Below are positions 4,694-12,464 of a stretch of 64,000 nucleotides of DNA, in pieces; positions within the stretch are counted from its first letter, which is position 1; the number at the start of each line of letters is the position of its first letter. Location of the stretch: positions 39,370-103,369 of the forward strand of contig CADBUI010000010.1 in the NCBI GenBank assembly GCA_902797855.1, written 5' to 3'. The DNA is from an uncultured Erysipelotrichaceae bacterium (GTDB taxonomy: Bacteria; Bacillota_I; Bacilli_A; RFN20; CAG-826). The notes beneath the pieces were generated by a model. The model saw only the letters and a list, made by a program, of their open reading frames with translations. It did not search any database and was not told the DNA's origin. The translations under genes and the position numbers were made by a program.

Positions 4694-5710
4694 TTATTCG
4701 TTCTCGGCTTTTTTATCAGCTTCATCAAACATTTTTAATAAATCTTCAACGCTGAGTTTTTCTTTTTCTTTACCTTTAACATCAAGGATGATGTGACCTA
4801 GATGAAACATTATTAATCTATCTCCATAAGTCAAAGCGTCTTTCATATTATGAGTGACCATTAATGTTGTCATCTTATTTTCTCTAACAACCTTATTAGT
4901 TAGTTCAAGAACTTTCTTTGCAGTCTTTGGATCAAGGGCAGCAGTGTGTTCATCAAGGAGAAGGATTTGTTTTGTTAGATCAAATTTTTCTCTAATTTGT
5001 CTATCAAATTCATCTTTTGCGTTCCTTATCATTTCTTTTTTATCATTTTTAGAAATAGATGAATCAAGTTTAATTGTTCTAATATGTTCATCTAATATTG
5101 CTTTTTTGGATGAAAATTCTTGATCGAATTCCTTTCGTGCGTCTTCTTCTTTTAGACCACTAAAAAGAATGTAGTCGCGTCTCATCATTTGATAAGTAGG
5201 GTTATTTCTCATAGTGGCCATTAACAAAGTTAATGCTTGTCGTTGTCCACCTGACATTACGCCTACTTTTTGAGATAGTCTATCTTCTAAACCTAAATCA
5301 AATCGCTTTAGTTCATTTATAAAATATTCTTTATGTTTTTCACTAAAACCCCATTTAATTGGAGAATGTCTTCTTCCACGGTTATAGGCTATCTCAAGAT
5401 TTTCAAGCACTGACATATCTCCGGCGGTGCCTTTCATAGGATCTTGGAAGACACGACCAAAATAAGCCGCTCTTTGATATTCTTTAAGTTTAGTAATATC
5501 TCTTCCATTAAGTGTGATTATTCCTGAATCAGGTTTTAAAGAACCAGAAATAATATTTAAAGTAGTGGACTTTCCACTTCCATTACCTCCAATAATAGTC
5601 ACAAATTCACCAGGAGATATCGCTAATGAGATGTTATCTAAGGCGATTCTTTCATCATCAAGTGCGCCAGTAAGGTTAAATTTCTTAGTGACATTTTTTA
5701 ACTCTAGCAT
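4694..5710 (-). CDS. ABC transporter ATP-binding protein (putative Trp/Tyr-type system) with a large internal insertion
   Basis: Walker A GGNGSGKST, signature MSGGQRQ and Walker B ILLLDEHTAALD. It is 338 aa, versus about 260 aa recalled for this family. Confidence 0.9.
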   Translation of the reverse strand: MLELKNVTKKFNLTGALDDERIALDNISLAISPGEFVTIIGGNGSGKSTTLNIISGSLKPDSGIITLNGRDITKLKEYQRAAYFGRVFQDPMKGTAGDMSVLENLEIAYNRGRRHSPIKWGFSEKHKEYFINELKRFDLGLEDRLSQKVGVMSGGQRQALTLLMATMRNNPTYQMMRRDYILFSGLKEEDARKEFDQEFSSKKAILDEHIRTIKLDSSISKNDKKEMIRNAKDEFDRQIREKFDLTKQILLLDEHTAALDPKTAKKVLELTNKVVRENKMTTLMVTHNMKDALTYGDRLIMFHLGHIILDVKGKEKEKLSVEDLLKMFDEADKKAENE

Positions 5711-6703
5711 CTAAATCGCCTCCTTTACTTTCTTTGACTTAATCTTATCAATTAAGTGTTTGATTCCACTTTTTATAAGTGGAAGACATAAAGCTATCGT
5801 GATAAGCACTGCGTATAATAAGCTCTTTAATTCTGTTCTAAGTCCAAGTCTAGTCGCGATATTAACAATTGTGAAATAGATAATTGAGCCAAGGCTAACA
5901 GAGATGAGCCAGTTTTTAAATGAACGCTTACCAAATATTGTTTCTCCAACAATTATTGAGGCTAGTCCAATAACTAAATATCCTGTCGCAGATATAGTGG
6001 ATGCTGTTTTTGATTCTTGAACGACAAGTGCACCCGCTAAAGCAATAAGAGCATTGGAGATTGCAATGCAAACAATAGTGGCAATAGTGGTGTTAATTCC
6101 TTGAGCTTTTGCCATATTCTCGTTCATTCCCGTTGCTCTAATCGCCATTCCATATTTAGTTCCAAAGAAGAAGTAGATTATTAGCATAGCTAATATAACC
6201 ACTCCAAGCATCACAGCAATCTTGATAACATCTCCCCATGGGTTAGGAACAATATAGAAGTCTCCAACTTGCTCCCATGGATAGAATAAAGAATAAATTG
6301 TTTGTTGTGGCGATCCTTTAGTGACTAAATTTGTGAATGATACCTGGGCAGCGAATATATCGCTGTTACCACTTTGTAAACCCATAATAATCATCGAGAT
6401 TGAGCCAGTCGCAGTCATGGTGATAATTCCACTTAATAGCTTAGGAATATTTAATAATCTATTTAAGACACCAGTAATAATTCCACATATCGCGCCTCCA
6501 AGGACTGATACTAAAGTAGCTAGCCAAGGATTCACGCCATTAAATATCATCACTCCACAGATAGAAACACCGATTAGGAAACTACCTTCAGCTGTTAAAT
6601 CTGCAAAATCGAGTAAACGGTAGGTTAAAAAGATACCAAGTGCGAGTAGACAACATGGAAGACCGCTAGAGAATATATTTAGTATAAAATCTAAAAACTC
6701 CAT
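5711..6703 (-). CDS. ABC transporter permease (partner of the PF04392-type binding protein)
   Basis: 330 aa, polytopic and hydrophobic. It abuts the ATPase and SBP genes with gaps of 0-2 nt. Confidence 0.88.
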   Translation of the reverse strand: MEFLDFILNIFSSGLPCCLLALGIFLTYRLLDFADLTAEGSFLIGVSICGVMIFNGVNPWLATLVSVLGGAICGIITGVLNRLLNIPKLLSGIITMTATGSISMIIMGLQSGNSDIFAAQVSFTNLVTKGSPQQTIYSLFYPWEQVGDFYIVPNPWGDVIKIAVMLGVVILAMLIIYFFFGTKYGMAIRATGMNENMAKAQGINTTIATIVCIAISNALIALAGALVVQESKTASTISATGYLVIGLASIIVGETIFGKRSFKNWLISVSLGSIIYFTIVNIATRLGLRTELKSLLYAVLITIALCLPLIKSGIKHLIDKIKSKKVKEAI

Positions 6704-6705
6704 AA

Positions 6706-7695
6706 TTATCCTAAACTAATATCGCGGCACTTAGATGTGACGCTTTCTGGTAAACTAACACCAGCGGCAGCAGCGTTCGCGCTACTCATAACATATTCAC
6801 ATTCTTCTTTAGACATAAAGCCAACTGGAATTTCTCCAGCCTTCTTTTCTTTATTTAAAATAGAGACCGCCATCTTGCCAACTTCTTCACCAAGTTTAGT
6901 GTAATTAACACTGAGTGTTACGCTACCACAATCAGCAAGCATTCCCTCTTCGCCACAAACGACTAAGATACCACTTCCTTGAACAGCACTTTTCACGGCA
7001 TTAGTGTTTTTAGCAATATTGTTATCAGTTGGAATATAGATGGCATCAAGTCCATCAACTGAGGCGAGCGCACTTGCAGCGCTAGAAACATCACTTGGAC
7101 CAGTTGCGGTTTGAACAGATACACTGATACCGCTTGCTTCCAAAGCAGCCTTAGCTTTATTAGCTTGAACGACTGAATTTTGTTCACTTTGAGTGTATAA
7201 AATTCCCACCTTATCTGCAGCAGGATTACATTCTTTAATTAAACTAACTTGATCTTCAACTGGGTTAATATCACTTGTACCAGTAACAAATCCTTTTCCA
7301 TTTTCTAAAGAAGAGACAAGTCCTTTACCAACTGGATCAGTAACAGCGGTGAATAAGACTGGATTAGTGATACCTTTATCAATAGAAGCACTTAAAAGTG
7401 CTGCAGCAGGATCAGTCGCAATTCCTAAAGTCATATCACATCTACCAACGAGATCTTTGCTAAAGGCAACTATATCGGCTGCAACTCCTCCAGCGTTACG
7501 ATAGATAAATTCAACTTTATCTTCGTTATATCCAGCATTTGCGAGAGCTTTCTTAAAGCCTTCGCGAGCGTTATCAAGCGCTGGGAATTCAGATGGTTGA
7601 AGAATGCCAATCTTGATTTTTCCGTTTCCGGAGCATGATGCCATTAAAGTAGAAACTGCCATAATAGCGCCTAGTAATAAGATTTTCTTTTTCAT
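6706..7695 (-). CDS. ABC transporter substrate-binding lipoprotein, ABC_sub_bind (PF04392) family
   Basis: Lipobox LMAS|C. The KIGILQ..ALD..GF and TAVTDPV..GLV pattern is typical of the putative tryptophan/tyrosine transport SBP family. Confidence 0.88.
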   Translation of the reverse strand: MKKKILLLGAIMAVSTLMASCSGNGKIKIGILQPSEFPALDNAREGFKKALANAGYNEDKVEFIYRNAGGVAADIVAFSKDLVGRCDMTLGIATDPAAALLSASIDKGITNPVLFTAVTDPVGKGLVSSLENGKGFVTGTSDINPVEDQVSLIKECNPAADKVGILYTQSEQNSVVQANKAKAALEASGISVSVQTATGPSDVSSAASALASVDGLDAIYIPTDNNIAKNTNAVKSAVQGSGILVVCGEEGMLADCGSVTLSVNYTKLGEEVGKMAVSILNKEKKAGEIPVGFMSKEECEYVMSSANAAAAGVSLPESVTSKCRDISLG

Positions 7696-7719
7696 GTTTC
7701 CTTCTCCTTACATTTAAAT

Positions 7720-7749
7720 AAAAAATCTAGGTATCAGTGGGACACCTAG
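7720..7749 (-). terminator. attenuator terminator in the 5' leader of the ABC operon
   Basis: Minus-strand RNA CUAGGUGUC-CCACU-GAUACCUAG (9 bp including one G-U) followed by A-UUUUUU-A-UUU. It ends about 25 nt before the SBP start codon. Confidence 0.6.
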
Positions 7750-7820
7750 GACAATTTAATTATCTTCGGTGTCTAACACTTAAGTTTCCCACCGAAAATG
7801 TTATTTTTGCGATAGGAAAA

Positions 7821-7886
7821 TTACCTAAAGTAAAAATAATAAAAATAGAAGTATGCATTGAAGTTAACATTTTTAACTTTCATCAT
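7821..7886 (-). CDS. candidate regulatory leader peptide MMKVKNVNFNAYFYFYYFYFR
   Basis: AGGAG (7897-7893) lies 6 nt upstream of ATGATG. The ORF has 21 codons and 10 of the last 13 sense codons are Tyr/Phe. It lies between a candidate promoter and the terminator hairpin. Confidence 0.6.
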   Translation of the reverse strand: MMKVKNVNFNAYFYFYYFYFR

Positions 7887-7910
7887 TTTGCGCTCCTATT
7901 TGTTGAATTT

Positions 7911-7939
7911 ATTTTATCATACCAATATTTCATTACTAG
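7911..7939 (-). promoter_or_regulatory. candidate extended -10 promoter for the leader transcript
   Basis: Minus strand TG-a-TAAAAT (7919-7911) with a weak -35 (CTAGTA/TAGTAA). Confidence 0.3.
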
Positions 7940-8080
7940 AAAAAAATATAAAAATGTCGATAAAATCGCAATTATTCTAATATTTAAGTATTTATAGGTG
8001 CCCTTGCACCCTTTCAAAGAATGATTTACAATATTATTGGTTTGGTGGGAACTAGGTAAATCATCTAGTCCCATCTTTTT

Positions 8081-8197
8081 TTAACCTTGGTGATTACTCA
8101 CTTTGATTAGATAAATCAGGATCAATAATATAACAATATATTCTATTGTTTCTCTCCTTTTACTAGGGGCAAGGGTCCTATAAACAGGATGAAACAT
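8081..8197 (-). CDS. unannotated small membrane protein (38 aa)
   Basis: GGAGG (8208-8204) lies 6 nt upstream of ATG 8197. Product is MFHPVYRTLAPSKRRETIEYIVILLILIYLIKVSNHQG, with one hydrophobic helix. It is below the 60-aa cutoff of the track. Confidence 0.45.
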   Translation of the reverse strand: MFHPVYRTLAPSKRRETIEYIVILLILIYLIKVSNHQG

Positions 8198-8203
8198 TTT
8201 GTT

Positions 8204-8249
8204 CCTCCTATTATATTTATTGGGGTAAAGTTTCTAAAAAAGTTCCAAA
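8204..8249 (-). repeat. conserved ~45-nt element, copy 1 (partner at 12394-12437)
   Basis: Minus strand TTTGGAACTTTTTTAGAAACTTTACCCCAATAAATATAATAGGAGG. It shares a 15-nt exact core, TTTACCCCAATAAAT, and flanking similarity with copy 2. Confidence 0.6.
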
Positions 8250-8287
8250 TTAATAAAGTATTTTCTTATTATTTATAAATAAACCTA

Positions 8288-8317
8288 TTGCAATTATTTT
8301 TTTAGTTGTGTTATATT
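8288..8317 (+). promoter_or_regulatory. candidate promoter of the alaS leader
   Basis: TTGCAA (8288-8293), 18-nt spacer, TG-t-TATATT (8309-8317). Confidence 0.45.
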
Positions 8318-8323
8318 TTGTTT

Positions 8324-8487
8324 ACTCCGATAAAGGAAAGAAGTAATTATTACGGGCCACTCCTTTGGAGTCGATGAAAGTCGACGTAATTCTGCGTTAA
8401 GGATATTAATTAAGAGTGTTATCTATTGATAACAAATAAGGATGGTACCGCGCTAAGTCGTTCCTTAGGGACGATTTTTATTTTTTT
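8324..8487 (+). promoter_or_regulatory. T-box riboswitch leader (Ala)
   Basis: T-box motif AAGGATGGTACCGCG (8438-8452) with a UGGU bulge. Terminator GTCGTTCC-TTA-GGGACGAT (8457-8475) plus a U-run. It lies directly upstream of alaS. Candidate specifier is GCC-A at 8356-8359. Confidence 0.85.
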
Positions 8488-8499
8488 AGGAGGTTAAAC

Positions 8500-11106
8500 A
8501 TGAAATATTTAACTGGTAATCAAATTAGAAACATGTGGTTAGAGTTCTTTAAAGAAAAAGGACACCACGTTGAAAAAGGAGCTTCACTAATTCCATATAA
8601 TGATCCAACTTTATTATGGATTAACTCAGGTGTTGCAGCCTTAAAAAAATATATGGATGGTAGTGAAGTACCTCCAAGTAGAAGAATCACTAACGTTCAA
8701 AAATCCATTCGTACAAATGATATGGATAACGTTGGCTATACCGCTAGACACCATACATTCTTTGAAATGCTTGGATGTTTCTCTATTGGAGACTATTTTA
8801 GAAAAGAAATTATTGAGTGGGCATTTGAAATTCTTACTAGTAAGAAATATTTTGATATGCCAGTGGATAAACTATATTTCACCTATAACCCAATTGATCA
8901 AGAAACTCATAAACTTTGGCTTAAGCAAGGTGTTAAAGAAGATCATTTAATTCCTCTTGAAGGAAACTATTGGGAAATCGGTGAAGGTCCAGCTGGACCA
9001 AACACTGAAGTCTTCTTTGATAGAGGAGAAAAATATGATCCTAAACATTTAGGAGTCACTCTTCTAAAAGAAGATATGGAAAATGACCGCTATATTGAAA
9101 TATGGGGAATTGTTTTCTCTCAATATAACGCTCAACCAGGAGTTCCTAGAACTGAGTATAAAGAACTCCCAAGTAAAAATATCGATACAGGTGCAGGACT
9201 AGAAAGATTCGCTTGTGTTCTTCAAGAAGCAGACAGTAACTTTGAAACAGATTTATTCTTCCCATTAATTAAAGAAACAGAAAAATATGCTTCTGTTCCT
9301 TATAAAGAAGATACAAAAACTCCATACCGTGTTATTGCTGACCATATTAGAGCTGTCACATTCGCACTTTGTGATGGTGAAACTTTCTCAAATGAAGGAA
9401 GAGGCTACGTACTACGTAGACTTGTCCGTCGTGCGATGAGATACGCCAAAAAGATTGGTATTGAAGGAGCTTTCTTATATAAGCTTGTGGATATCGTTAC
9501 TAAAATCAATAAAGATTTCTATCCAGAATTATCTACAAAAGCTAAAGAAATCTCTAATAGTGTCAAAATTGAAGAAGAAAAATTCCTCAAAACACTTTCT
9601 AGTGGTGAAGCAATTCTTCGTGACTTATTAGTGAATAAGAAAGAACTTAGTGGAGAAGAAGCTTTTAAACTTTATGATACCTTTGGTTTCCCACTTGATT
9701 TAACAAAAGAAATCTGCTTAGAAAACGGCGTTAAAGTTGATGAAGAAGGTTTCCTTAAAGAAATGGAAAAACAAAAACAAAGAGCTAGAGACGCTAGAAG
9801 TGATGAACAAAGCATGCATAAACAATCTAAAGATTTATTAAATTTCACTATGAAAAGCGAATTCACTTATGATGACACTCCTATAAAGAGTAAAGTAATT
9901 GCTTTGTTTAAAGATGGAGAAAAAGTAGATTCAATATCCTCTGAAGGAGAAATCATCTTTGATAAAACTAATTTCTACGCTGAAAGCGGTGGTGAAATCG
10001 CCGATAAAGGTGAAATTAAATCTAAAGATGTGCTCGCTAGTGTGCTTTCCGTTCAAAAAGCACCTAATAAACAACATCTTCACTTTGTGAAACTTCTTAA
10101 AGGAAGCATCAAAGTTGGTGATGAACTTGAATTAGTAGTGGATCATACTTCTCGTGAATTAATTAAAAGAAATCACTCCGCAACTCACTTACTACAATCC
10201 GCACTTGATAAAGTCCTTGGTGATCACATTAAACAGATGGGTTCATTTGTAAGTGATGAATATCTACGTTTTGACTTCACTCATAACGCTAAGATTAGTG
10301 ATAATGAACTTCGACTTATCGAAGAGGAAGTTAATAAATTAATTGCTTTAGCAATTCCAAGCGATATTAAAGTTCTTCCAATCGCAGAAGCTAATAAACT
10401 AGGCGCGAAAGCATTCTTCTCTGAAAAATACGGAGATGAAGTTAGAGTTGTCCGCTTTGGTGATGTCTCCATCGAATTCTGTGGTGGTTGTCACGTCGAA
10501 AACACAAAGGATATTGGTGTATTTGCTATTGAAAGCGAAGAAAGTGTCGCTAGTGGAGTGCGTCGTATTCAAGCGCGTGCATCTATAGGTGCGTATAAAT
10601 TATTAAAAGAAAAAGAACTTTTACTTAATGATGTAAGAGATCTTTTAGGAGCTTCTTCAATCCTTGAGATCAAAGATAGATTAAATGCAAAGCTATCCGA
10701 AGAAGATAGTCTTAAGAAAGCTTATGAAAAAGCAAACGACCTCCTTGCTAGAGCAAACGCAAATTCACTTAAAAATGACTTCAAAGAAGTCTCAGGCTAT
10801 AAAGTGCTCGTAAGCTATCTAGAAGGCGCTAAAATCGCTGATTTAAATAAGATTGGTGACATTTTAAAAGTTGTCCACACTGATAGCGTTGTTATTTTAG
10901 TTGGTGGAAACGATAATGATTTACCAATTTCAATCTTTGTTAGTGGTAAAGCCTTAAATAATAACAAAGCTGGAATGCTAGTTAAAACTCTATCTAATAT
11001 GCTAGAAGGCTCTGGTGGTGGTAGAGATAATATGGCAAACGGAAAAGGTAAAAATAAATCTAAATTAGCGAAAGCGCTAGATGATATTATTACTTTCATT
11101 AAATAA
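8500..11106 (+). CDS. alaS: alanine--tRNA ligase
   Basis: 868 aa. Class II AlaRS N-terminus, HSATHLL/CGG.H editing-domain motifs and a C-terminal DHHA1-like region. Confidence 0.96.
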   Translation: MKYLTGNQIRNMWLEFFKEKGHHVEKGASLIPYNDPTLLWINSGVAALKKYMDGSEVPPSRRITNVQKSIRTNDMDNVGYTARHHTFFEMLGCFSIGDYFRKEIIEWAFEILTSKKYFDMPVDKLYFTYNPIDQETHKLWLKQGVKEDHLIPLEGNYWEIGEGPAGPNTEVFFDRGEKYDPKHLGVTLLKEDMENDRYIEIWGIVFSQYNAQPGVPRTEYKELPSKNIDTGAGLERFACVLQEADSNFETDLFFPLIKETEKYASVPYKEDTKTPYRVIADHIRAVTFALCDGETFSNEGRGYVLRRLVRRAMRYAKKIGIEGAFLYKLVDIVTKINKDFYPELSTKAKEISNSVKIEEEKFLKTLSSGEAILRDLLVNKKELSGEEAFKLYDTFGFPLDLTKEICLENGVKVDEEGFLKEMEKQKQRARDARSDEQSMHKQSKDLLNFTMKSEFTYDDTPIKSKVIALFKDGEKVDSISSEGEIIFDKTNFYAESGGEIADKGEIKSKDVLASVLSVQKAPNKQHLHFVKLLKGSIKVGDELELVVDHTSRELIKRNHSATHLLQSALDKVLGDHIKQMGSFVSDEYLRFDFTHNAKISDNELRLIEEEVNKLIALAIPSDIKVLPIAEANKLGAKAFFSEKYGDEVRVVRFGDVSIEFCGGCHVENTKDIGVFAIESEESVASGVRRIQARASIGAYKLLKEKELLLNDVRDLLGASSILEIKDRLNAKLSEEDSLKKAYEKANDLLARANANSLKNDFKEVSGYKVLVSYLEGAKIADLNKIGDILKVVHTDSVVILVGGNDNDLPISIFVSGKALNNNKAGMLVKTLSNMLEGSGGGRDNMANGKGKNKSKLAKALDDIITFIK

Positions 11107-12393: not shown

Positions 12394-12437
12394 TTTGGAC
12401 TCTTTTTAAGAATTTTACCCCAATAAATTATTAGGAG
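12394..12437 (+). repeat. conserved ~45-nt element, copy 2 (partner at 8204-8249 minus)
   Basis: TTTGGACTCTTTTTAAGAATTTTACCCCAATAAATTATTAGGAG. About 36 of 45 positions align with copy 1. Confidence 0.6.
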
Positions 12438-12464
12438 AGAAAAAAGAGAACTCCTGGAGGGAAT

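Follow-up and report, generated by a model that had tools for sequence, protein, structure and literature searches.

How an ATP-binding cassette (ABC) importer for aromatic amino acids is switched on and off in an uncultured Erysipelotrichaceae bacterium, and which amino acid its regulator senses, are the questions raised by a stretch of 64,000 nucleotides (nt) of contig CADBUI010000010.1 (assembly GCA_902797855.1, positions 39,370 to 103,369 of the forward strand), hereafter called the window and numbered from its first letter. On the minus strand of the window, the importer operon is preceded by a short open reading frame (ORF) crowded with tyrosine and phenylalanine codons and by a predicted intrinsic terminator. 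A first-pass annotation had read this arrangement as a leader-peptide attenuator of a PF04392-type aromatic importer, and the analysis reported here supports that core claim through the conservation and reading frame of the ORF, the covariation of the RNA behind it, the dependence of the predicted folding on ribosome position and the binding pocket of the transporter. We consider it highly probable that the element works by transcription attenuation, with a ribosome on a leader peptide as its sensor, and that it controls a tyrosine ABC importer, which would be on when charged tRNA-Tyr, and probably also charged tRNA-Phe, is low.

A Conserved Leader ORF with an Aromatic Codon Run

The leader ORF (7821-7886, minus strand) consists of 21 codons and a stop codon, and its product is MMKVKNVNFNAYFYFYYFYFR. 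It is preceded by the Shine-Dalgarno (SD) sequence AGGAG (7893-7897, minus strand), which is read in the sequence 6 nt ahead of ATG ATG. Tyr or Phe codons account for 10 of the last 13 sense codons, nine of which form an uninterrupted regulatory run, YFYFYYFYF (7827-7853, minus strand), made of five Tyr and four Phe codons, and one extra Phe codon lies upstream; the codon count and the minus-strand coordinates of the first pass (SD 7897-7893, ORF 7886-7821) were all reproduced. In the six frames of the 64-kb window, no other aromatic run is as long, the runner-up having six codons, and a window-wide scan for an SD-led intergenic short ORF with an amino-acid run and a downstream terminator returned this one only. 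A putative extended -10 promoter element read from the sequence (TGgTATGAT, 7916-7924, minus strand), about 20 nt upstream of the SD, would place the start of transcription at about 7909. This element is unchanged in three near-identical strains, despite a 289-base-pair (bp) insertion about 65 nt upstream, and the relatives L086, L088, L089 and L090 carry TTGACA-16-TAGATT directly upstream of the leader SD. No promoter-like site was seen in the window sequence between the leader ORF and the binding-protein gene. The whole element is small, about 170 nt.

Conservation was assessed on 80 related loci from species-representative genomes and on 14 closer-relative loci from metagenome assemblies; a metagenome scan with the binding protein as single query returned only 31-33% relatives. 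The relatives are labelled as Bacilli, Erysipelotrichaceae, Acholeplasmatales or Mollicutes metagenome-assembled genomes (MAGs). In the subgroup to which the window belongs, with binding-protein identities of 49-97%, an SD-led short ORF with a terminal Tyr/Phe run is present in 15/15 loci, with endings such as GFFFYYYFFR, FGFYYFYYFL, SFYYYYFGYFR and GYFYFYYFYYR, and some of these leaders come from GC-richer genomes, in which Tyr and Phe are kept through TTC and TAC codons. The upstream DNA was long enough in 76 reference loci, 37 of which have an aromatic-run short ORF within 300 nt, compared with 4/76 reverse complements and 2.2% of dinucleotide shuffles; for AT-rich loci alone, the figures are 37/49, 3/49 and 4.2%. 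The aromatic leader is far above chance. A hairpin followed by a T-run lies upstream of the binding-protein gene in 43/43 leader-bearing loci examined, 40 of these terminators being located 18-71 nt before the assigned start codon and the widest spacing being 116 nt. The check suggested in the first-pass annotation, i.e., a search for the aromatic run and the hairpin in orthologous leaders, has thereby been carried out, with the run present in all 15 subgroup loci and in 37 of the 76 reference loci.

The more distant subfamilies have nearly pure Tyr runs, e.g., FYYYYYYYS, SYYYYYYPRKIV and VSYYYYYYYYLRE, and no Trp codon occurs in any leader among the relatives (core composition Y 236, F 131, W 0). 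Across the relatives, neither the peptide's length nor its N-terminal sequence is conserved, and the Tyr/Phe run is the only peptide feature conserved across divergent subfamilies. Since a change of frame turns a (UAY)n run into Leu codons, the reading frame itself was tested: an in-frame ATG with an SD-like 4-mer accompanies the Tyr/Phe frame at 36 of 47 distinct loci and the other two frames at none. A leucine reading of the run (+2 frame, a "leu/phe"-type leader) was consequently rejected, SD and ATG being found in that frame at no locus. No leader ORF was found in actinobacterial relatives, and some Clostridia-type relatives have T-boxes instead of the leader.

The Importer and Its Probable Substrate

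The first gene downstream of the leader encodes a substrate-binding lipoprotein (6706-7695, minus strand; PF04392, Pfam 187 bits) and has its own SD, AAGGAG (7709-7704, minus strand). Homologs with solved structures are 3LFT, 6HNI and 3LKV. Against the TrpX equivalog model NF041285, the protein scores 210.6 bits, below the cutoff of 390, and it is therefore not a TrpX equivalog. Its specificity can be compared with that of three characterized proteins (Bradshaw et al., PMC6816091). CD0873 of Clostridium difficile (PDB 6HNI) binds Tyr through the specificity residues Glu-263, which hydrogen-bonds to the Tyr hydroxyl, and Tyr-279, which excludes Trp, and among 20 amino acids it is stabilized solely by Tyr; the same two positions are occupied by Ala and Tyr in VC_1101, whose ligand is Phe, and by Ala and Gln in SP1069, whose ligand is Trp. 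In a phmmer alignment, Glu249 and Tyr265 of the window protein fall at Glu-263 and Tyr-279 of CD0873, giving a tyrosine-type pocket and not the Trp-type Ala-268 and Gln-284 of SP1069, and both residues are invariant in 42 homologs. Although sequence places CD0873 in the PF04392 fold family as well (E 1.2e-34) and its specificity residues are identical, it is only a distant sequence relative, and the tyrosine ligand of the window protein is a prediction.

Leader and pocket agree across the family. The Glu/Tyr pocket is found in 46/46 loci with Tyr-rich leaders, and the single pure-Phe leader (FFFFFFF), that of the Leptolinea MAG locus L081, accompanies an Ala/Tyr pocket like that of the Phe binder VC_1101. 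Furthermore, the T-box of the ortholog L032 has UAC (Tyr) at the specifier position; the specifier of the L066 T-box is ambiguous (GAA-GUU-C or GAAG-UUC-C) and was given no weight. A tyrosine importer is therefore deduced from the pocket residues, the match of leader and pocket and the Tyr specifier of L032. The first-pass annotation had suggested a Tyr/Phe substrate: the aromatic part of that assignment stands, and the pocket residues narrow it to tyrosine specifically as the most likely substrate, while the Phe codons of the leader may add sensing of Phe.

Two loci deserve separate mention. About 190-70 nt upstream of its binding-protein start, L081 carries the leader Phe run …HSFFFFFFFATPHK… and a strong terminator; judged from its sequence, this locus of a Chloroflexota MAG would do for Phe what the Tyr system does for Tyr. 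L015 has a degenerate leader: 142-73 nt upstream of the binding-protein start, the terminator is kept and the leader ORF, MFNFIGKFSFYSINVLVIPSIF, is without a Tyr run; in its binding protein, Lys replaces Glu at the position that binds the tyrosine hydroxyl. At this locus, a change of substrate may have gone together with decay or retargeting of the attenuator.

A Predicted Terminator and RNA Switch Behind the Leader ORF

The hairpin CUAGGUGUC/GAUACCUAG, with a 9-bp stem (7749-7741 with 7735-7727) followed by A-U6 (7726-7720; U6 tract at 7720-7725, minus strand), passes the terminator scan, as had been proposed from inspection, and its U-run ends 25 nt before the binding-protein ATG (7695). 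The only variation of the stem in three sister strains is A7747G, which keeps the pairing (A-U to G-U).

Folding with the ribosome-covered RNA masked revealed five segments 3′ of the stop codon, all read on the minus strand. Segment A (UUUCCUAUCG, 7810-7819), which begins 2 nt past the stop codon, is hidden when a ribosome sits on that codon. Segment B (UUUUCGGUGGGAAA, 7785-7798) can pair either with A, through 7794-7785, or with C, through 7798-7790. Segment C (AGUGUUAGACACCGAAGA, 7763-7780) has as its partner either B, through CACCGAAGA (7771-7763), or D. Segment D (7736-7749) comprises the 5′ arm of the terminator (7749-7741) and the loop CCACU (7740-7736), and segment E (7727-7735) is its 3′ arm. 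Four mutually exclusive helices are possible, with predicted energies of -11.7 kcal/mol for A:B, -13.9 for B:C, -15.7 for C:D and -10.9 for D:E. C:D is the antiterminator, in which AGUG (7780-7777) and GACACC (7773-7768) pair with CACU (7739-7736) and GGUGUC (7746-7741).

In the predictions, the choice between these helices is set by the position of the ribosome. A ribosome at the stop codon covers A, so that B:C and D:E form; when it is stalled within the aromatic run, A:B and C:D form (AGUG:CACU, GACACC:GGUGUC). In equilibrium folding of the full-length transcript with an assumed ribosome footprint, the probability of the terminator is 0.00-0.06 with the A site at 7850-7835 (7847-7835 for the shortest footprint tested), 0.06-0.77, depending on the footprint, with the A site at 7832, and 0.77-0.99 at the last Phe codon (footprint of 13 nt or more), the Arg codon and the stop codon, reaching 0.99 at the last of these. 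The predicted transition falls where the aromatic codon run ends, and shuffling the spacer removes the switch (shuffled spacers: -0.01). Across the family, 18 of 42 loci show a switch of more than 0.2 in the predicted direction and one shows the opposite.

These results answer the folding check that the first-pass annotation had called for and amend the three pairings that it had drawn by hand. All three are complementary as written, and one of them, UUUUCGGUG/CACCGAAGA, covaries and corresponds to helix B:C. The other two were set aside as functional helices: CGGUGGGA/UCCCACUG is absent from the folding predictions and is not conserved in relatives, its complementarity arising because B and D, both being partners of C, resemble each other; UUUAGG/CCUAGG is likewise unpredicted and unconserved, and in some folds the leader end pairs with the 3′ arm instead. 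The real antiterminator, C:D, had been missed.

Covariation and Peptide Tails

To measure covariation, the 15 subgroup sequences were aligned with MAFFT and the alignment was left unfitted. In helix B:C, 91% of the cells are paired and five pairs are compensatory, i.e., changed on both sides; one of its pairs appears as AU in five sequences, CG in five, GC in three and UA in two, and is never unpaired. The state that contains B:C has a covariation score of 0.241, compared with 0.107 for shuffles, none of 500 shuffles reaching 0.241, and its slid controls are 39-46% paired. The core of C:D is 94% paired, with three compensatory pairs. The core stem of A:B is 96% paired across the 15 relatives and its extension 76%, and A:B and C:D taken jointly are 85% paired vs. 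45-58% for slid controls. Alignment column 74, in C, covaries with the partner positions in both B and D, and L089, L090 and L094 carry GG-A-UG / CA-U-CC / GG-A-UG at those positions; a column of C that changes together with both partners is what alternative pairing predicts.

Other subfamilies have different RNA sequences and the same logic, and the SD-led Tyr/Phe ORF is their common denominator. Judged by predicted base pairing, the conserved tails of the peptides turn out to be constraints on the RNA. In the subgroup of the window, the conserved Arg codon AGG pairs with the CCU of the flank of segment A; in other subfamilies, CUUGG just past the stop codon is the partner of Pro-Arg or Gln-Glu codons (CCAAG, CAAGAG), and UUAUUGAUU that of Asn-Gln-stop (AAUCAAUAA).

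A further conserved sequence, CUUGGNCUUUU, is located past the leader stop codon in L006, L008, L009, L014, L053, L067 and other Erysipelotrichaceae- or Acholeplasma-type loci, where it can pair with the CCAAG of the Pro-Arg (or Gln-Glu) codons right behind the Tyr run. The hairpin of CUUGGNCUUUU with its U-tract is possibly a pause site for RNA polymerase that would synchronize translation with transcription.

A Model of Attenuation and the Points Against It

The window presents four features of a leader-peptide attenuator: a short SD-led ORF in the 5′ leader of an operon, clustered codons that match the amino acid of the regulated genes (nine Tyr/Phe codons and a tyrosine-type pocket), a predicted intrinsic terminator (7749-7720) behind the leader ORF and ahead of the first structural gene and, computationally, mutually exclusive antiterminator and terminator helices set by ribosome position. 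In the model that we propose, transcription would start just upstream of the SD and a ribosome would translate the 21-codon leader. When Tyr and Phe are plentiful, it would reach the Arg and stop codons and cover A, whereupon B would pair with C, D would be left free, D:E would form and transcription would end 25 nt short of the binding-protein gene. If Tyr or Phe runs low, the ribosome would stall in the nine-codon run, 10-30 nt further upstream, and leave A free; A:B would then form, and C, once released, would pair with D before E is transcribed, allowing RNA polymerase to read through into the genes for the binding protein, the permease and the ATPase. In this model, it is inferred where transcription starts, that the leader is translated, that ribosomes stall on it, that a premature 3′ end arises and that the operon responds to amino-acid supply.

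Several points weigh against this model. A few relatives, such as L005, have no leader. Helix A:B is mostly conserved and shows little covariation; the terminator helix, whose length is too variable for MAFFT, is poorly aligned and has no covariation support, and the terminator is therefore supported locus by locus. The related sequences are not independent, which makes the p-values optimistic. The folding tests concern equilibrium only, with an assumed footprint, and about half of the family loci show no switch in them. In a test on truncated transcripts, which asks whether D is paired before E exists, the window gave no difference, GACACC:GGUGUC still winning at equilibrium in the transcript truncated before E; family-wide, 16 of 42 loci moved in the right direction and none in the opposite one. 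The predicted probability of the terminator without a ribosome is 0.02-0.16, i.e., read-through, unlike in the textbook trp case. Finally, Phe makes up about a third of the codon run, and Tyr supply is described as being without effect in the sole experimentally studied Phe-Tyr-Phe leader, that of Corynebacterium glutamicum aroR (PMC11802643).

Alternative Explanations

The last point bears on the best-placed alternative, which keeps the attenuator and changes its signal: phenylalanine or the general aromatic supply would be what is effectively sensed, by the Phe codons, and Tyr would contribute little. The five Tyr and four Phe codons of the window, with a further Phe codon upstream, leave room for such a reading; in the Phe-Tyr-Phe leader of aroR, only Phe limitation is reported to have had an effect (PMC11802643), and loss of a related C. 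difficile transporter reduced the uptake of both Tyr and Phe (PMC5951980). Against it, Tyr prevails in the leaders of the family (236 vs. 131) and is their best-conserved residue, several leaders are pure or nearly pure Tyr runs, a Glu for the Tyr hydroxyl accompanies every one of the 46 Tyr-rich leaders while the pure-Phe leader comes with an Ala pocket, and CD0873 responded to Tyr alone (PMC6816091). We therefore regard a signal that is chiefly Phe as unlikely, albeit one to be kept in mind.

A generic sensor of translation stress, comparable to the ermC, bmrCD and vmlR leaders, is far less probable. In such a sensor, any stall, for instance one caused by antibiotics, would lead to read-through, and the aromatic codons would be incidental. 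The folding model does predict read-through for any stall upstream of 7832, and ABC transporters of Bacillus subtilis are under leader-peptide control by antibiotic-induced stalling (PMC4191407). However, the Tyr/Phe run is the sole feature of the peptide kept across divergent subfamilies, it matches the specificity residues of the transporter, and the regulated genes encode an amino-acid importer, neither an exporter nor an ABC-F protein.

Just as little credit can be given to a regulator made of RNA only, in which segments A-E would form a riboswitch or an element binding tRNA or protein, and the ORF would be an untranslated by-product of U/A-rich sequence. GGUGGGAAAC and other segments are indeed well conserved within the subgroup, and a riboswitch candidate, the trpB motif, is listed ahead of uncharacterized amino-acid ABC transporters of Firmicutes (Narunsky et al. 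2024). Nevertheless, the leader matches no Rfam family at E<=10, the RNA segments differ wholly between subfamilies that share the SD-led Tyr/Phe ORF, SD and ATG are confined to the Tyr/Phe frame, the GC-richer relatives retain the amino acids through TTC and TAC, and the predicted switch point is the end of the codon run. The weakest candidate, and a scarcely credible one, is a functional Tyr/Phe-rich micropeptide with a good SD, a good start codon and its own terminator behind the ORF, next to an independently transcribed transporter: the 25 nt between terminator and binding-protein gene hold no promoter-like site, peptide length and N-terminal sequence are unconserved, the C-terminal residues track RNA pairing (AGG/CCU here, CCAAG/CUUGG or AAUCAAUAA/UUAUUGAUU in other subfamilies), and the element is always linked to this transporter.

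Relation to T-Boxes and Known Attenuators

Known regulatory RNAs were sought in the region 7400-8700 with cmscan and Rfam 15 (E<=10). In this search, no T-box (RF00230) was found on the minus-strand leader and none of the amino-acid leader families of Rfam 15 matched; the overlapping match to the "Avalong thermometer" (19.5 bits vs. a threshold of 154 bits) is at chance level. The only T-box is that of alaS, on the opposite strand (8321-8468, plus strand), in agreement with the first-pass annotation. Its score of 60.4 bits is below the Rfam gathering score of 93, and 11 nt stand in place of about 66 model positions in distal stem I, which leaves a strongly shortened stem I. Another regulatory RNA, the ribosomal protein L21 leader (RF00559; 15409-15487, plus strand; 40.2 bits vs. 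a gathering score of 36), is the sole Rfam family above threshold in the whole window. The motif called trpB (SRC-39-1), a riboswitch candidate with two covarying hairpins, the second being a terminator, is located upstream of trpB or of an uncharacterized amino-acid ABC transporter in Firmicutes and Fusobacteria (Narunsky et al. 2024). If it is included in Rfam 15, it gave no match to the leader.

The statement, in the first-pass annotation, that relatives of this transporter are controlled by T-boxes proved correct: trpXYZ of Streptococcus suis, of the same transporter family, is under Trp T-box control (PMC9382623), and T-boxes lie upstream of L032 and L066. These systems resemble the window in the family of the transporter, in their position just upstream of the binding-protein gene and in the logic by which an uncharged tRNA or a hungry codon brings about antitermination; they differ in that they sense through a tRNA-binding RNA, whereas the window leader is, by prediction, a translated ORF. 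The S. suis locus L051 was considered as trpX and rejected: no T-box matched at E<=0.001 and its pocket residues are unlike those of SP1069, so that it is probably not trpX itself.

With the leaders of Proteobacteria (trpL, pheL, hisL, leuL and thrL), the window element shares the SD-led short ORF, the clustered regulatory codons, the mutually exclusive helices and the read-out of ribosome position. The his attenuator of Escherichia coli is a multi-helix relay from A:B through E:F, which the relay of the window resembles. Unlike these leaders, the window element is predicted to sense mainly Tyr, controls an importer and not a biosynthetic operon, is found in an uncultured low-GC lineage of Bacilli, has no sequence or Rfam similarity to them and, when untranslated, has read-through and not termination as its predicted default.

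Closer to the host lineage, His leaders have been predicted in the Bacillus cereus group (PMC2965389) and in the B. cereus group, Peptostreptococcaceae and Erysipelotrichales (PMC9413887). Like the window leader, they stand in place of T-boxes and were predicted by comparative genomics only, and Erysipelotrichales are also among the lineages with the Tyr leader; they differ in having 3-5 His codons in a row, ahead of his biosynthesis operons. The uORFC-13-1 motif of Acholeplasma, located upstream of aroF, includes a U-run that encodes one Phe or more (Brewer et al. 2021, PMC8632094) and likewise combines an aromatic-codon upstream ORF with an intrinsic terminator, in an Acholeplasma-type lineage and next to aromatic amino-acid metabolism. 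By its description, it is set apart from the window leader, having a Phe and not a Tyr run and preceding aroF, whereas the gene downstream of the window leader is that of the PF04392 binding protein. The first-pass remark that such a leader is unusual for a low-GC Gram-positive genome was overstated, these His leaders and the Acholeplasma Phe leader having already been reported (PMC2965389; PMC9413887; PMC8632094).

According to the summary in PMC11802643, the only leader with Tyr codons that has been studied experimentally is aroR of C. glutamicum (Neshat et al. 2014), a ribosome-mediated attenuator with mixed Phe-Tyr-Phe codons; it is actinobacterial, is located upstream of aroF and hence of biosynthesis, has three codons as opposed to nine or ten, and responds to Phe and not to Tyr. 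Neither a tyrosine leader peptide nor leader-peptide control of this transporter was found described in the literature searched, from which most subscription journals were absent. The mechanism class is thus already known, including in Erysipelotrichales (His) and Acholeplasma (Phe), and the tyrosine version is the new part.

On balance, we lean towards a broader proposal, namely that the window element belongs to the first tyrosine-specific class of leader-peptide attenuators, one that is widespread among uncultured Bacilli of gut and rumen (MAGs of Erysipelotrichales-, Acholeplasmatales- and RF39-like kind) and present in a few Clostridia, which would replace the T-box before the PF04392 importer, with codon run and pocket changing together and with ON as the default without translation. 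This default would follow from the four-helix logic, which makes termination depend on completed translation of the leader. Since a Tyr run goes with a Glu pocket and a Phe run with an Ala pocket, the specificity of the transporter could be read from its leader.

Neighboring Features

Downstream of the binding-protein gene, the operon continues on the minus strand with the gene of a permease (5711-6703; PF02653, BPD_transp_2, by Pfam) and that of an ABC ATPase of 338 amino acids (4694-5710; domain search), so that the domain searches matched the make-up of binding protein, permease and ATPase given in the first pass. In the ATPase, the match to the ABC domain is split between about residues 1-170 and about residues 246-320, which points to an insertion of roughly 75 residues within the nucleotide-binding domain.

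Upstream of the leader, a 289-bp segment (7987-8275) is absent from three near-identical strains, L098, L099 and L100, and is therefore a strain-specific insertion and not part of the regulator; for the same reason, the 400 bp upstream of the leader were rejected as a part of it. The insertion carries a promoter-like site (8238-8210), an SD and an ORF of 38 amino acids (8197-8081, minus strand; MFHPVYRTLAPSKRRETIEYIVILLILIYLIKVSNHQG) with a hydrophobic C-terminal half, as well as two hairpins (about 8072-8047 and 8010-7997), with TAAATA at both junctions. A 53-nt stretch with 81% identity is located at 12394-12445. One possibility is that a small mobile element or toxin-like cassette has inserted here.

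Significance

The finding changes no paradigm. The element is small and its predicted switch very sharp, and it is thus well suited for testing how transcription and translation are coupled in Firmicutes-type bacteria. Tyrosine uptake is also relevant to gut metabolism, e.g., to the production of p-cresol by C. difficile (PMC6816091; PMC5951980), and the leader provides an independent, sequence-only assignment of tyrosine to a large PF04392 subfamily that is vaguely labelled "tryptophan/tyrosine" in databases. If the proposed attenuator is correct, tyrosine would be added to the few amino acids for which sensing by leader-peptide attenuation is known or predicted, and a clade of poorly studied, mostly uncultured host-associated Bacilli would use this mechanism where better-known Firmicutes use T-boxes.

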